34,588 nucleotides of DNA, taken from the UHGV virus genome UHGV-0091505. The stretch is one strand, 5' to 3'. The stretch comes from a virus. Below are positions 1,427 to 29,103 of the stretch, in pieces (position 1 is the first letter of the stretch; each line of letters begins with the position of its first letter). Under the pieces are notes generated by a model that saw only the letters and a program-made list of their open reading frames with translations, searched no databases and was not told the DNA's origin. A program made the position numbers and the translations under genes.

Positions 1427-1530
1427 GTTAAATCTCCAGATAGTCGCAGCACCCGTTGCGCCGCATATCTGGTTATTCTATTACCTGAAAAACCATATAT
1501 GGATATATAGCTCATGAATACGGACAGATA

Positions 1531-1621: not shown

Positions 1622-1879
1622 ATGCAGCAGTATCACTATCCACTGGAAGACGGATTTACCGAAAGGATTCACACGCCGGGAGGCGTCAGGTCACTGGTGG
1701 AGGGATCGCACTTGATGAAATTACTCCGGGATCTCGATAAGGATGGATTTAATGTCGATGGCCCACTTGCCGAACTGACTGCACTGATTAACTACGTCAC
1801 CAGCTCACAGATGTCTATGCATGATCTGCAAACACATCTCGACTATTGTGCCGAACAATTACGAAAACAAACCAGATAA
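1622..1879 (+). CDS. small SOS-controlled antirepressor-like protein (standalone paralog of the C-terminal domain of the downstream Bro-N antirepressor)
   Basis: ATG at 1622 preceded by GGAGAAG; the track start at 1514 would place the LexA box inside the ORF; translated product aligns with the last ~75 aa of the 2192-2878 protein (PGGVRSLVEGSHLMKLL..LAELTALINYV..DLQTHLDY versus PSGVLGLTENSLLMNLL..AAELTTMFCYI..DIQTHAEY). Confidence 0.55.
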   Translation: MQQYHYPLEDGFTERIHTPGGVRSLVEGSHLMKLLRDLDKDGFNVDGPLAELTALINYVTSSQMSMHDLQTHLDYCAEQLRKQTR

Positions 1880-1882
1880 GGT

Positions 1883-1925
1883 TTGCAATTACCAAGTGGA
1901 GTACTTATATTTACCTTTGCGGTAA
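1883..1925 (+). promoter_or_regulatory. sigma70-type promoter (TTGCAA-17 nt-TATATT) with operator palindrome TTACCTTTGCGGTAA abutting the -10
   Basis: -35 at 1883-1888, -10 at 1906-1911, perfect TTACC-N5-GGTAA at 1911-1925; same -10/operator juxtaposition as at the pL-like promoter. Confidence 0.45.
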
Positions 1926-2019
1926 ATTTACATCGCACTCCTCTTGTGCCATAGTAATCTGGCACTGGCAAAATCCAGTGCCGGGATTGGCGTCCTTGGT
2001 TACTACAGAGGCACATATG

Positions 2020-2036
2020 CCGCATAAGCGGTTTTT
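2020..2036 (+). terminator. weak intrinsic terminator-like hairpin (CCGC-ATAA-GCGG followed by 7 T)
   Basis: Short GC stem plus T-run in the leader between the small antirepressor paralog and the Bro-N gene; stem is only 4-5 bp. Confidence 0.3.
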
Positions 2037-2191
2037 TTATGTGTAAAGCGCACCTATTCTATGGTGGGCTGTGTGGGGGCACCGAAAGGTGCGCCGGGTC
2101 CTTTGTAGCCGGTTACGCCAACCCTGCACAGTTCACCACCAACCGATTGGCGTCGGTAGTGGTGATTAACCTAACTACAAAGGTGATCACT

Positions 2192-2878
2192 ATGACTGCT
2201 AACGTAACCCCATCTGTTTTTCATTTTGAATCAGAAGCAACCATTCGAGCCATTGTTATTGATGGAAATCCCTGGTTTGTTGCCAAAGACGTTATTAAAG
2301 CTCTTCAACTGACAAACCCGACTATGTCAATAAAATCTCTTGATGATGATGAAAGGGCTAAATTTAACTTAGGCCGTCAAGGCGAAACCAATATTATCAA
2401 CGAGTCAGGCCTCTACACACTGATCCTCCGCTGCCGCGACGCAGTGACACCAGGCACTATCCCCTACCGCTTTCGTAAATGGGTTACAGGTGAGGTACTT
2501 CCTCAGATCCGCCGCACCGGAAGTTACATTAAAAACTCGCTCTCGCAGGAAGAACGGATAAAGATGGTTGCCGACCAGGTAGCCAACGCCACGGCGTCAG
2601 CAGTGATGCAGGCGATGAAGATAGAGAACAAAACCTACAACGCCCCACTGAAGCCCGGCTACCGCAGCCTGATACATTCTCCGTCTGGTGTTCTCGGCCT
2701 GACGGAGAACTCACTGCTGATGAATCTGCTGAACCAGTTACAGGAAGACGGGCACGATGTATCTGGCGCGGCAGCGGAGCTGACCACCATGTTCTGCTAC
2801 ATCGTCGGTGTGAGCAAATGCCTGCGTGATATCCAGACACACGCGGAGTACATCAACGACAAGGCTGGGTTCTTCTGA
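2192..2878 (+). CDS. phage antirepressor, Bro-N domain family (Ant-like)
   Basis: ATG at 2192 with SD AAAGGTGA; N-terminal region FHFESEATIRAIVIDGNPWFVAKDVIKALQL..ESGLYTLILRCRD is a Bro-N/antirepressor signature; C-terminal domain is paralogous to ORF 1622-1879. Confidence 0.8.
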   Translation: MTANVTPSVFHFESEATIRAIVIDGNPWFVAKDVIKALQLTNPTMSIKSLDDDERAKFNLGRQGETNIINESGLYTLILRCRDAVTPGTIPYRFRKWVTGEVLPQIRRTGSYIKNSLSQEERIKMVADQVANATASAVMQAMKIENKTYNAPLKPGYRSLIHSPSGVLGLTENSLLMNLLNQLQEDGHDVSGAAAELTTMFCYIVGVSKCLRDIQTHAEYINDKAGFF

Positions 2879-19079: not shown

Positions 19080-19169
19080 ATCAATGACTCCGTACGCAAT
19101 TAAATTATTACCAATTTAACCATATATGATTTATTTATCGTAGATAGTTGACATTTAACGCACAAATTA

Positions 19170-19184
19170 TTACCTTTCAGGTAG
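19170..19184. promoter_or_regulatory. operator-like site TTACCTTTCAGGTAG
   Basis: TTACC-N5-GGTAG; 14/14 identical to the core of the site at 1531-1545; a TTGACA hexamer lies 16 nt upstream. Confidence 0.3.
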
Positions 19185-19506: not shown

Positions 19507-19583
19507 GTGGCATTAGCTCAGTTGGACAGAGCAACCGCCTTCTAAGCGGTTGGTCGCAGGTTCGAATCCTGCATGCCACGCCA
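19507..19583 (+). tRNA. tRNA-Arg (anticodon UCU), argU-like
   Basis: 77 nt cloverleaf folded by hand: acceptor GTGGCAT/ATGCCAC, D-arm GCTC/GAGC, anticodon stem ACCGC/GCGGT with loop CTTCTAA, T-arm GCAGG-TTCGAAT-CCTGC, discriminator G and encoded CCA. Confidence 0.85.
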
Positions 19584-21723: not shown

Positions 21724-22316
21724 TGATTACCATCCTGACGTTCTTTGAGTCGCTTCCTGGCTGCCGCTATGCGATCAGCAATTGTCACATTCACATTAAC
21801 ATCCAAGCGTTCTTTGAATGCATTGACATCGACGTGCTTGCCAATCAGTTCGAGGTTCTTCACCTTGTCAGGCCATTTAATTTTTTTGAGGATTGTCTCT
21901 ATCGAATCCTCGTTCATGTTCATGATGGTCGATGACAGATCAAAGCCACTAAGCGTAGTGCGCCAGATTTTCGGCCACTCACGGATTGGTTTAAGGCTCC
22001 CATCGTCGTTGAGGATGTCGATCACGTCCATCTGGTCGATCTCCACCAGGCGCATGAGAACGTAATCAGCACTGACACGCATTCGTTTGTTGCGCTCCTC
22101 CATCAGCTCGGCAATCCGTTTCTGAATGCGTTCATCGCGCATCATGACACTGGCTTTAACTGCCGCTGTATTTGGGGAGAATCCTGCGTTAATCGCTGCC
22201 TGAGTCTGGTTTTCAGGCGTTTTGATGTATGACTGGCAATAAGCCTCCTGCATTGCTGTGAGCGGCTTAAATTGCGTTGATTTGCGTTTATAGGTTTTAG
22301 GTTCAGCAGGCATCAT
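21720..22316 (-). CDS. terminase small subunit
   Basis: Probable start at the ATG pair 22316/22313 (MMPAEPK..); the longer track ORF extends through an operator repeat translating to TITTTVTITTVV; DNA-binding type N-terminus. Confidence 0.8.
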   Translation of the reverse strand: MMPAEPKTYKRKSTQFKPLTAMQEAYCQSYIKTPENQTQAAINAGFSPNTAAVKASVMMRDERIQKRIAELMEERNKRMRVSADYVLMRLVEIDQMDVIDILNDDGSLKPIREWPKIWRTTLSGFDLSSTIMNMNEDSIETILKKIKWPDKVKNLELIGKHVDVNAFKERLDVNVNVTIADRIAAARKRLKERQDGNQ

Positions 22317-22333
22317 AACCACCGTGGTAATAG

Positions 22334-22348
22334 TTACCGTTGTGGTAA
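22334..22348. promoter_or_regulatory. operator palindrome TTACCGTTGTGGTAA upstream of terS
   Basis: Perfect TTACC-N5-GGTAA 18 nt upstream of the terS start; preceded on the minus strand by TACTAT (-10-like). Confidence 0.4.
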
Positions 22349-25921: not shown

Positions 25922-25998
25922 TTACCCCTGAGGTAATTAAAAACCACATAAGACACTAAATCAATAGAGTTTAGAATATTTTGTTACCCAACAGGTAA
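25922..25998 (-). promoter_or_regulatory. operator-flanked promoter (minus strand TTGATT-17 nt-TTTAAT) between the P-like gene and the nin-like block
   Basis: Two perfect palindromes TTACCCCTGAGGTAA (25922-25936) and TTACCCAACAGGTAA (25984-25998) bracket a -35/-10 pair (plus-strand 25959-25964 and 25936-25941); same architecture as the pL-like promoter. Confidence 0.45.
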
Positions 25999-28230: not shown

Positions 28231-28266
28231 AGCTATTGCCTGATATTTATTTCAGATAATAAATAT

Positions 28267-28329
28267 TCACCCATAAGGTAACAAAAATCAAGGATAGTTA
28301 CCTATGGGGTGCATTTACCTGTTGGGTAA
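28267..28329. promoter_or_regulatory. OR-like operator region (three sites) with divergent promoters
   Basis: TCACCCATAAGGTAA (28267-28281), TTACCTATGGGGTGC (28298-28312) and perfect TTACCTGTTGGGTAA (28315-28329) between cro-like and repressor genes. Confidence 0.5.
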
Positions 28330-28384: not shown

Positions 28385-28969
28385 ATGAAAAGTATCCAGG
28401 ACGTCCGCAGGCAAAATCTCAACGACTTGATCGACCGTGAATTCAATGGTGTTCAGACGCGGATGGCAGAAAAACTTGGAACTCAGGCAAATCTGGTAAA
28501 CCGCTGGGCTCTTGGCAAGAAGGTTATCGGCGACCAGGTTGCGCGAAAAATTGAAGCTGCCGCCAATAAACCCCGTAACTGGCTTGATATCGATCGCTCG
28601 CTTTCTCAGGAAGGTTTTCAGCCTGTCGGACCAAGCGACATTGGTCAACTGGCGGCTCACAACCTGGAACGCTGGATGAGCGAAAGCCGCGACCTTTCAA
28701 CACAGGGAAAACTTCACCGCGCATCCGGCGTCGCCCAGGTGACAATCAGCCGCCTGTTAAACAATGAGGTCAGCGTTTCCATTTCCACCCTGGAGAATGT
28801 TGCATCCGCATTCGGGCGTCACGGCTATGAATTACTGATTCACCCGCACGACCCTGCGACCATCAACTATGACCGCTCGCGCTACGCATTGTTACCCGAA
28901 ACCGAGAAAGCAAAGATCGAAAGTTACATTGAATTTGTCATCAACCAGAACGAAAAAAACAAACAATAA
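28385..28969 (+). CDS. prophage repressor, dual-HTH type without S24 peptidase domain
   Basis: 194 aa; two HTH-like segments (QTRMAEKLGTQANLVNRWALGKK and HRASGVAQVTISRLLNNE); no Ser-Lys autocleavage motif recognisable; divergent from cro, same strand as the early-left operon. Confidence 0.7.
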   Translation: MKSIQDVRRQNLNDLIDREFNGVQTRMAEKLGTQANLVNRWALGKKVIGDQVARKIEAAANKPRNWLDIDRSLSQEGFQPVGPSDIGQLAAHNLERWMSESRDLSTQGKLHRASGVAQVTISRLLNNEVSVSISTLENVASAFGRHGYELLIHPHDPATINYDRSRYALLPETEKAKIESYIEFVINQNEKNKQ

Positions 28970-29026: not shown

Positions 29027-29103
29027 TTACCTGTCGGGTAATTTTTTTAACTCATATCTATTGACATCAAACCAAATACGAATAATCATTACCTCAACGG
29101 TAA
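29027..29103 (+). promoter_or_regulatory. pL-like promoter (TTGACA-16 nt-TAATCA) flanked by two operator palindromes
   Basis: TTACCTGTCGGGTAA (29027-29041), -35 29061-29066, -10 29083-29088, TTACCTCAACGGTAA (29089-29103). Confidence 0.55.

Follow-up and report, generated by a model that had tools for sequence, protein, structure and literature searches.

A predicted phage P1 immI-type antirepressor cassette joined to an SPC32H-type Rep/Ant switch in a phiV10-like Escherichia coli prophage

Introduction

Four kinds of described system come closest to the locus considered here, positions 1883-2878 of the virus genome UHGV-0091505, which encodes a Bro-N antirepressor behind a long 5' leader; the whole stretch analysed, 34,588 nucleotides (nt) in length, is called the window below. 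These systems are the immI region of phage P1, the isrK-anrP locus of Gifsy-1, the Rep-Ant switch of phage SPC32H and the isrK-C4-Bro-N cassettes of Stx phages and APSE-8. Phage P1 was compared through its GenBank annotation, in which the immI record runs in the order C1 operator (Oc4/Op51), P2c4, P1c4 (P51a/P51b), a1, b1, C4, a2, b2, icd and ant1/ant2. As this record annotates the C1 operator on the c4-icd-ant operon, the logic of a repressor-controlled antirepressor is already known. The C4 RNA of phage P1, ~77 nt long, acts in trans and is cut from a longer precursor by RNase P. The main repressor of phage P1 also controls operators scattered over the genome (PMC8546580).

For the Salmonella prophage Gifsy-1, the report by Hershko-Shalev et al. 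2016 (PMC4825925) describes the arrangement isrK-orf45(STnc1160)-anrP-isrJ, in which the small RNA (sRNA) IsrK is transcribed from a promoter of its own, ends in a leaky terminator and precedes first a C4-like RNA and then the antirepressor gene, with a read-through messenger RNA (mRNA) predicted to be inactive. According to the same report, short IsrK acts in trans and activates AnrP translation, and Hfq binding by IsrK together with trans-activation of antirepressor translation is known for Gifsy-1 only. In SPC32H, Ant is produced after LexA cleavage (review PMC7380047) and dismantles the DNA-binding Rep tetramers (PMC9638917; PMC9986798).

Here we describe DNA motifs, RNA families and protein homologies which indicate that 1883-2878 is probably (we put this at roughly 0.6) an antirepressor cassette of the phage P1 immI type wired to the prophage's own SPC32H-type Rep, so as to form a thresholded double-negative loop with an RNA gate. 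The elements are arranged in the order promoter P1, overlapped by the predicted Rep operator, promoter P2, IsrK (with a1/b1 and a weak terminator), C4, a2, b2 on the Shine-Dalgarno (SD) sequence, and ant.

Results

A sequence-only reading of this stretch had placed a sigma70 promoter and a prophage operator palindrome at the head of the Bro-N gene, and both were found there. Promoter P1 (1883-1911, plus strand) consists of TTGCAA (1883-1888) and TATATT (1906-1911) at a spacing of 17, with a sigma-70-like score of 9/12 and a predicted start at ~1918. It is followed directly by the predicted Rep operator TTACCTTTGCGGTAA (1911-1925), a perfect TTACC-N5-GGTAA palindrome lying within an extended palindrome, whose first T is the last T of the -10 hexamer. 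The window holds seven perfect copies of TTACC-N5-GGTAA against 0.00 expected, and 11 copies with at most one mismatch against 0.49 expected, and they occur at promoters on both strands. One pair (29027-29041 and 29089-29103) surrounds the PL-type promoter TTGACA-17-AATCAT just downstream of rep, and another (25922-25936 and 25984-25998) surrounds a minus-strand promoter, the two members lying 62 bp apart in each case. The likeness to palindromes flanking pL/pR-type promoters that had been claimed for the cassette palindrome was borne out, as these other copies bracket promoters and the -10 ends on the first T of the operator alike at promoter P1, the PL-type promoter and the promoter at 25936.

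Two further operators lie between the cro-like gene and rep, one with a single mismatch (28267-28281) and one perfect (28315-28329), and additional sites were found ahead of terS and near a transfer RNA (tRNA) gene. The full operator set is syntenic in the Salmonella phage SPN9TCW and the Enterobacter phage Tyrion. An operator-like site with one mismatch, TTACCTTTCAGGTGA (1531-1545), is located upstream of the small-ant promoter, 380 bp upstream of the cassette operator, and its counterpart at the same position is perfect in Tyrion, Phi05_1387B, SPN9TCW and a Klebsiella phage. Both half-sites are the same in all of 11 related cassettes, and the 5-nt spacer between them reads TTTGC, GCAAA, TCACA, AAAAT or TTTTC; fixed half-sites around a variable spacer are the signature of a protein-binding site, not of an RNA stem. 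The palindrome at 1911-1925 behaves in these comparisons as the operator of the main repressor, and we infer that Rep binds here.

No partner operator was found 62 bp to either side of 1911-1925, the sequence at 1850-1864 offering only a TTACG half within the small-ant coding sequence. The phiV10 operator is TTACCGCAAAGGTAA, and the TTTGC spacer of the window, when reverse-complemented, gives exactly the spacer found there, as if the centre had been inverted. The operator and SD regions are 72% complementary to each other, which was set aside as probably due to chance, the spacer being inverted in phiV10.

Promoter P1 keeps its -35 and -10 in register with the operator in three unrelated upstream contexts (TTGCAA, TTGAAA and TTGATT), including two phages with ~1.1 kb inserted between small ant and the cassette. 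Promoter P2 (TTTACA-17-(TG)cCATAGT, 1927-1955, plus strand) lies next to it, has a TG extension and is predicted to start at 1962, the first base of IsrK. Its -10 block TTGTGCCATAGT is invariant among the aligned phages, and in PA28, APSE-8 and phage P1 a promoter -10 likewise ends 7 nt before the isrK match. By position, P2 is the predicted homologue of the isrK promoter and of the P1c4/P51b promoter of phage P1. The operator covers the start of promoter P1, ends 1 nt before the -35 of P2 and is centred at -44 relative to 1962, so that one Rep site covers the start of promoter P1 and touches P2. As P2 lies downstream of the operator, occupancy by the repressor need not silence the locus. The insertions just mentioned, at 672-1760 in TL-2011b and 674-1589 in EC.W1-9, consist of minus-strand genes; both phages retain the cassette's own promoter and operator despite the insert, and that of TL-2011b carries an extra perfect operator (TL-2011b position 1421).

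The main repressor is a Rep homologue of 194 amino acids (aa) encoded at 28385-28969 on the plus strand, which matches PDB 5D50_A over residues 1-190 with an expect value (E) of 4e-42. Pfam detects HTH_3 only and no S24 peptidase domain in it, as in a non-cleavable Rep of the SPC32H type, and no convincing -10 was found upstream of rep for a promoter of its own. The small antirepressor (85 aa, 1622-1879, plus strand) is an orthologue of SPC32H Ant, with an E of 2.1e-46 to PDB 5D50_E ('Anti-repressor protein'). Upstream of it is the LexA box TACTGTATAAATATACAGT (CTGT-N8-ACAG, 1583-1601), the sole perfect match in the window, whose CTGT and ACAG arms are invariant in four aligned phages. The small Ant is accordingly classed, from its box and its homology, as the predicted SOS-controlled paralogue that had been proposed earlier.

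The antirepressor gene of the cassette runs on the plus strand from an ATG at 2192 to 2878 and encodes 228 aa, and its assignment to the Bro-N type is well founded. Residues 18-104 (nt 2243-2503) form a Bro-N domain (Pfam PF02498, E 4.6e-20, 72.5 bits against a gathering score of 25.6), and residues 147-223 (nt 2630-2860) form a 77-aa domain resembling SPC32H Ant (PDB 5D50_E, E 6.1e-14). The C-terminus of this protein and the small Ant are 40% identical (E 8e-16). The protein falls into PHROG 130 'anti-repressor Ant' (1.6e-56), and its C-terminal part belongs to PHROG 450, which is also the family of the small Ant. On this homology it is plausible that its Ant fold would bind Rep. The same Bro-N::Ant fusion is found in Tyrion and the Klebsiella phage; these two phages, the window and ZX5 all have an intact gene. 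In phiV10, p23 (phiV10 2263-2847) is truncated inside the Ant-like domain and followed by a 29-aa open reading frame (ORF), and this copy is probably defective. ORF4 of ZX5, an orthologue, is 81% identical to the protein of the window overall and essentially identical from about residue 80, with an identical Ant-like C-terminal domain. Overexpression of ZX5 ORF4 lowered lysogen titres from 1e9 to 1e6 (1000-fold) and pushed the phage toward lysis (PMC9782041), which indirectly favours the predicted binding of Rep by the Ant fold.

The leader had been taken for an uncharacterised attenuator; instead, it holds members of two Rfam families. An IsrK-family sRNA, which is equivalent to the a1/b1 leader, occupies 1962-2038 on the plus strand (RF01394, 63.8 bits against a gathering score of 50, full length 1-77). 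The two hairpins already described in the leader are both present in it. The 5' hairpin of IsrK has a perfect 8-bp stem, GGCACTGG/CCAGTGCC, at 1961-1982 (1962-1981 within IsrK), and the terminator-like hairpin is the intrinsic terminator of IsrK at 2019-2038, with its stem at 2019-2032 followed by seven T (a 5-bp stem and U7 in the RNA). Between the two lie the decoys a1, UUGGCGU (1987-1993), and b1, CUACAGAGG (2003-2011), which nearly copy the targets of C4 described below. Judged from its sequence, this IsrK has its own promoter and a leaky rho-independent terminator, as a member of the family should.

Downstream of IsrK, a C4 antisense RNA was detected at 2057-2143 on the plus strand (RF01695, 79.5 bits against a gathering score of 45, full length 1-87, E 3.3e-14). 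Its minimum free energy is -45.2 kcal/mol (z -3.6), and in the predicted fold a long closing stem encloses two hairpins and leaves unpaired both b', CCUUUGUAG (2100-2108), in a hairpin loop and a', ACGCCAA (2115-2121), at the junction; its 3' end carries a conserved ACCACCA motif. The target a2, UUGGCGU (2147-2153), starts 4 nt after the end of C4, as in phage P1, and is complementary to the C4 junction at 7/7 positions. The target b2, CUACAAAGG (2175-2183), is complementary to the C4 loop at 9/9 positions and overlaps the SD sequence AAGGUG of ant.

Across six phages, b', b2 and b1 covary, as do a', a2 and a1. In phiV10, matching 1-nt deletions occur in the C4 loop, the target and the decoy, and in Tyrion a double substitution from ACGCCAA to AGACCAA is matched in both UUGGCGU copies. 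A matched triplet of its own is also present in each of PA28, APSE-8 and the Klebsiella phage. In the predicted fold of the full read-through leader (z -4.5), the a1..b1 segment of IsrK pairs with the b'..a' segment of C4, and the SD sequence and AUG are hidden in a local hairpin. For Gifsy-1, the report gives such a pairing of IsrK with the C4 region as 'structure A', a translationally silent read-through mRNA (PMC4825925). By these features the leader is predicted to add a translational gate, set by IsrK and C4, to control at the operator.

The leader has some further features. A conserved GGUGGUGA (2159-2166) can pair either with UCACCAC in the 3' strand of the C4 closing stem (2133-2140) or with the SD/AUG region (2187-2194), and this alternative pairing, which the simple a/b model leaves unexplained, is available in all cassettes examined. 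A conserved AUG at 2061 in the C4 stem opens 15 codons and meets a UAG stop in the b' loop. The ORF at 2039-2878 is an in-frame extension of ant, and its reading as an N-terminally extended antirepressor or as an analogue of orf45 was rejected, as its ATG at 2039 is not conserved in phiV10, where the frame is broken, and as the AUG at 2061 leads to a stop so soon.

We next set the cassette beside the described systems. With the immI regions of phages P1 and P7 it shares a repressor operator at tandem promoters, a1/b1, C4, a2 at 4 nt from C4, b2 on the ribosome-binding site and an antirepressor; the phage P1 leader in turn matches c4-a1b1 and, below threshold, isrK. In contrast to phage P1, the cassette has no icd, only 48 nt separate the end of C4 from the ant ATG, and b2 occludes the ant SD directly. 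Its antirepressor combines Bro-N, the one domain that Pfam detects in it, with an SPC32H-Ant-like domain and is not a KilAC-type Ant1/2 (PF03374, to which Ant1 of phage P1 belongs), and a Rep of the SPC32H type takes the place of C1. The operator is placed between two promoters here, whereas that of phage P1 lies on the -35 of the upstream promoter, and the window has a LexA-controlled paralogue immediately upstream.

The cassette also resembles the Gifsy-1 locus in the arrangement of IsrK with its promoter and terminator, the C4-like RNA and the following antirepressor gene, and in a read-through form that is predicted to be inactive. It differs from that locus in lacking an orf45-type coupling ORF and, in an Rfam scan of the window, any isrJ match; it has in addition a repressor operator and an extra upstream promoter, neither of which is described in the available parts of the Gifsy-1 report (PMC4825925). 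As in the SPC32H Rep-Ant system (Kim & Ryu 2013; Kim et al. 2016; PDB 5D50/5D4Z), a homologous Rep is combined in the window with an orthologous small Ant whose promoter has a LexA box, and with the Salmonella relative SPN9TCW the window shares an ant beside the tailspike gene and the same TTACC-N5-GGTAA palindromes; relative to the SPC32H type, the IsrK-C4-Bro-N::Ant cassette has been added. The isrK-C4 tandem precedes antirepressor-type genes not only here and in phiV10, Tyrion and the Klebsiella phage, but also in the Stx phage PA28 and the Hamiltonella phage APSE-8. The cassettes of the Stx phage and APSE-8 have neither a TTACC-N5-GGTAA operator nor an upstream promoter of the promoter P1 type, and their C-terminal domains differ from that of the window, PA28 having P22_AR_C and APSE-8 an unrelated domain. 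Strictly, the cassette is not a member of the phage P1 immI operon; by analogy, it would work like phage P1 immI and Gifsy-1 isrK-anrP, and its matches assign it to the C4 and isrK RNA families and to the SPC32H Rep/Ant protein families.

By similarity to its relatives, the whole window is assigned to the E. coli prophages of the phiV10/epsilon15 type (Uetakevirus). Over 1430-2900, phiV10, ZX5, TL-2011b and many E. coli chromosomes share 93-97% identity with the window, and the Enterobacter phage Tyrion shares 78%. Of 5426 complete E. coli genomes, 293 (~5%) have an intact locus (at least 80% of the region). RefSeq labels it only with 'hypothetical protein' (small Ant) and 'BRO-N domain-containing protein' (e.g. 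NZ_LR890651), and its annotation is without small Ant, IsrK, C4 and the operators. Close Salmonella relatives of the SPC32H/SPN9TCW type have the small ant only, the IsrK-C4-Bro-N::Ant cassette being an addition in the E. coli, Enterobacter and Klebsiella members. Just 3' of the ant stop, a GC-rich hairpin, AGGCCGCTTTCGCGGCCT (2907-2924), was called by a scan as a terminator on the minus strand, and sits between the convergent ant and minus-strand genes.

Several other arrangements of the operator motif were observed elsewhere in the window. Between the cro-like gene and rep, 28266-28310 forms a near-perfect 15-bp inverted repeat, CACCCATAAGGTAAC ... GTTACCTATGGGGTG, with outward-facing GGTAAC/GTTACC half-sites at an unusual spacing, and Tyrion has a similar block. 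At 22316-22348, two neighbouring operator sites 18 bp apart lie between a terminator hairpin and the minus-strand start of terS, an arrangement kept in SPN9TCW and Tyrion; these operators may act as a roadblock ahead of the late genes. At 19148-19184, TTGACA is followed by the operator-like site TTACCTTTCAGGTAG (one mismatch) upstream of a tRNA-Arg(UCU) gene (19507-19583); Rep may control this tRNA gene. Another motif, TTACC-N5-AACCATATATG, has exactly two copies in the window (1481-1501 and 19108-19128) against 0.03 expected. Both lie just upstream of minus-strand structural-gene starts (1426 for the ATG of the tailspike gene, 19079 for the other ORF), at 50 and 62 bp from the operator-like sites 1531 and 19170, and the Klebsiella phage and EC.W1-9 have this motif as well. 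It may represent a hybrid Rep half-site or a late-promoter element.

Discussion

The reading we favour, a phage P1 immI-type cassette under the resident Rep, predicts the following sequence of events. In the lysogen, Rep on 1911-1925 would shut promoter P1 and probably also block read-through from the LexA-controlled small-ant gene. Most P2 transcripts would end at the weak IsrK terminator, and the few that read through would fold into an inactive form or yield C4, whose loop and junction would pair with b2 and a2 and keep the ribosome off ant. Upon DNA damage, LexA cleavage would free the small Ant, which would strip Rep from DNA. With the loss of Rep, promoter P1 would fire and short IsrK would accumulate, its a1/b1 competing for a'/b' of C4, so that the ant ribosome-binding site opens. 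The Bro-N-Ant protein would then inactivate Rep in a second wave, and induction would on balance be reinforced by a thresholded positive feedback. In this scheme, Rep binding at 1911-1925, promoter use, C4 processing, IsrK/C4 titration and feedback are modelled on phage P1 (C1/Op51-c4-ant), Gifsy-1 (IsrK activates AnrP translation) and SPC32H (LexA-Ant-Rep).

Given the Rep homology, the small Ant and the Ant-like C-terminus of the Bro-N protein, a double-negative loop is a reasonable inference, and a repressor-controlled antirepressor at this locus is plausible. The sequence-only reading had already proposed such a loop between repressor and antirepressor; the conservation of the operator and the Rep/Ant homologies speak for it, while the IsrK/C4 gate had gone unseen and P2 may escape the operator. 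P2, the two RNA families, the site at 1531-1545 and the non-conserved ORF extension at 2039-2878 all go beyond what that reading contained.

Going further, the locus could be viewed as a five-step relay that leads from protein through DNA, sRNA decoy and antisense RNA back to protein. In it a single operator would influence two promoters in tandem in opposite ways and the whole would act as a positive-feedback commitment switch, a tentative proposal which we think less probable than not. The SOS-released small Ant would lift Rep from an operator that gates promoter P1 and touches P2, and the shift in the IsrK:C4 ratio that follows would license Bro-N::Ant, a second antirepressor with the Ant fold of the first; such a relay as a whole has no counterpart in any one known system.

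Several points weigh against the cassette being a Rep-controlled amplifier of induction. Other early promoters are served by operator pairs 62 bp apart but the cassette by one operator only, and with a single operator repression may be weak or need looping to the 1531 site. P2 may stay active, or even be stimulated, with Rep bound. The duplex energy of C4 with its mRNA target is only modestly enriched, 17 of 500 shuffles being as good, whereas for C4 with IsrK the enrichment is strong (1 of 500); the C4 pairing is therefore argued from covariation rather than from energy. The truncated gene of phiV10 implies that at least one viable phage can do without the cassette, and Salmonella phages of the SPC32H/SPN9TCW type induce without it.

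The position of P2 is also the starting point of the main rival explanation, in which the operator serves mainly P2. Rep at -44 would leave P2 on or stimulate it, C4 would be made continuously, and the cassette would be a second immunity system, not an induction lock. The ant of the resident phage, or of a superinfecting relative, would then be kept untranslated, as with c4 of phage P1. That P2 is the conserved, ancestral cassette promoter and that the operator stops 1 nt short of its -35 agree with this. So does the sequence upstream of rep in three phages, where an operator, 2 nt, a -35-like hexamer and a poor -10 give the pattern of an activator-dependent promoter, and in the phage P1 record, too, it is the upstream one of the two tandem promoters, not the one adjacent to c4, that has the C1 operator. 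Activation by Rep is undocumented in the literature accessible, however, and the register of promoter P1 and operator, conserved in three unrelated contexts, argues that repression of promoter P1 has been selected. We regard a locus devoted mainly to P2 as unlikely, and a role for it in keeping a relative's ant silent as having a similarly small chance, although the two roles of the operator are not mutually exclusive. The cassette might, alternatively, be a horizontally acquired moron without a role in the switch, its operator a remnant or a mere insulator. It is absent from the Salmonella relatives, its gene is truncated in phiV10, and the same RNA cassette stands beside different antirepressors in unrelated phages. 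This is nevertheless quite improbable, considering that the C-terminal domain has precisely the Ant fold that goes with the resident Rep, that the operator half-sites are invariant in 11 copies, that the locus is intact in the 293 E. coli genomes and that ZX5 ORF4 shows a phenotype.

The two remaining explanations concern single elements. A cis-acting attenuator or riboswitch, whose hairpins sense a signal directly, would fit a terminator-like hairpin within a long 5' leader. But both structured parts match curated families of trans-acting RNAs above the gathering score, the three-way covariation of C4, SD target and IsrK decoy explains the conservation, and short IsrK was shown to act in trans in Gifsy-1 (PMC4825925); the chance of such a sensor is very slight. 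The palindrome, finally, is short (5+5 bp), and one might take it for a chance match or an RNA hairpin. The copy enrichment and synteny effectively refute this, the seven perfect copies sitting at promoters on both strands and the half-sites staying fixed while the spacer changes, which is the opposite of an RNA stem constrained by pairing. Among all these accounts, the immI-type cassette under Rep control remains the reading we prefer.

In terms of novelty, the combination is new and the parts are known, a phage P1 immI-style module being joined to an SPC32H-type SOS-controlled Rep/Ant switch. At least one phage record already carries annotation for the RNA cassette: the GenBank record of APSE-8 lists isrK, C4 and the antisense regions upstream of its Bro-N gene. 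In the literature searchable, no description was found of a Rep operator on the cassette, of the Bro-N::Ant fusion or of a tandem of two differently controlled Ant paralogues.

If this reading is true, IsrK would be the a1/b1 decoy of the C4 system, and the literatures on phage P1 c4/ant, Gifsy-1 IsrK/AnrP and SPC32H Rep/Ant, so far separate, would be linked. A common E. coli prophage would then commit to lysis in two stages, with a LexA-released trigger followed by a repressor- and RNA-gated amplifier.

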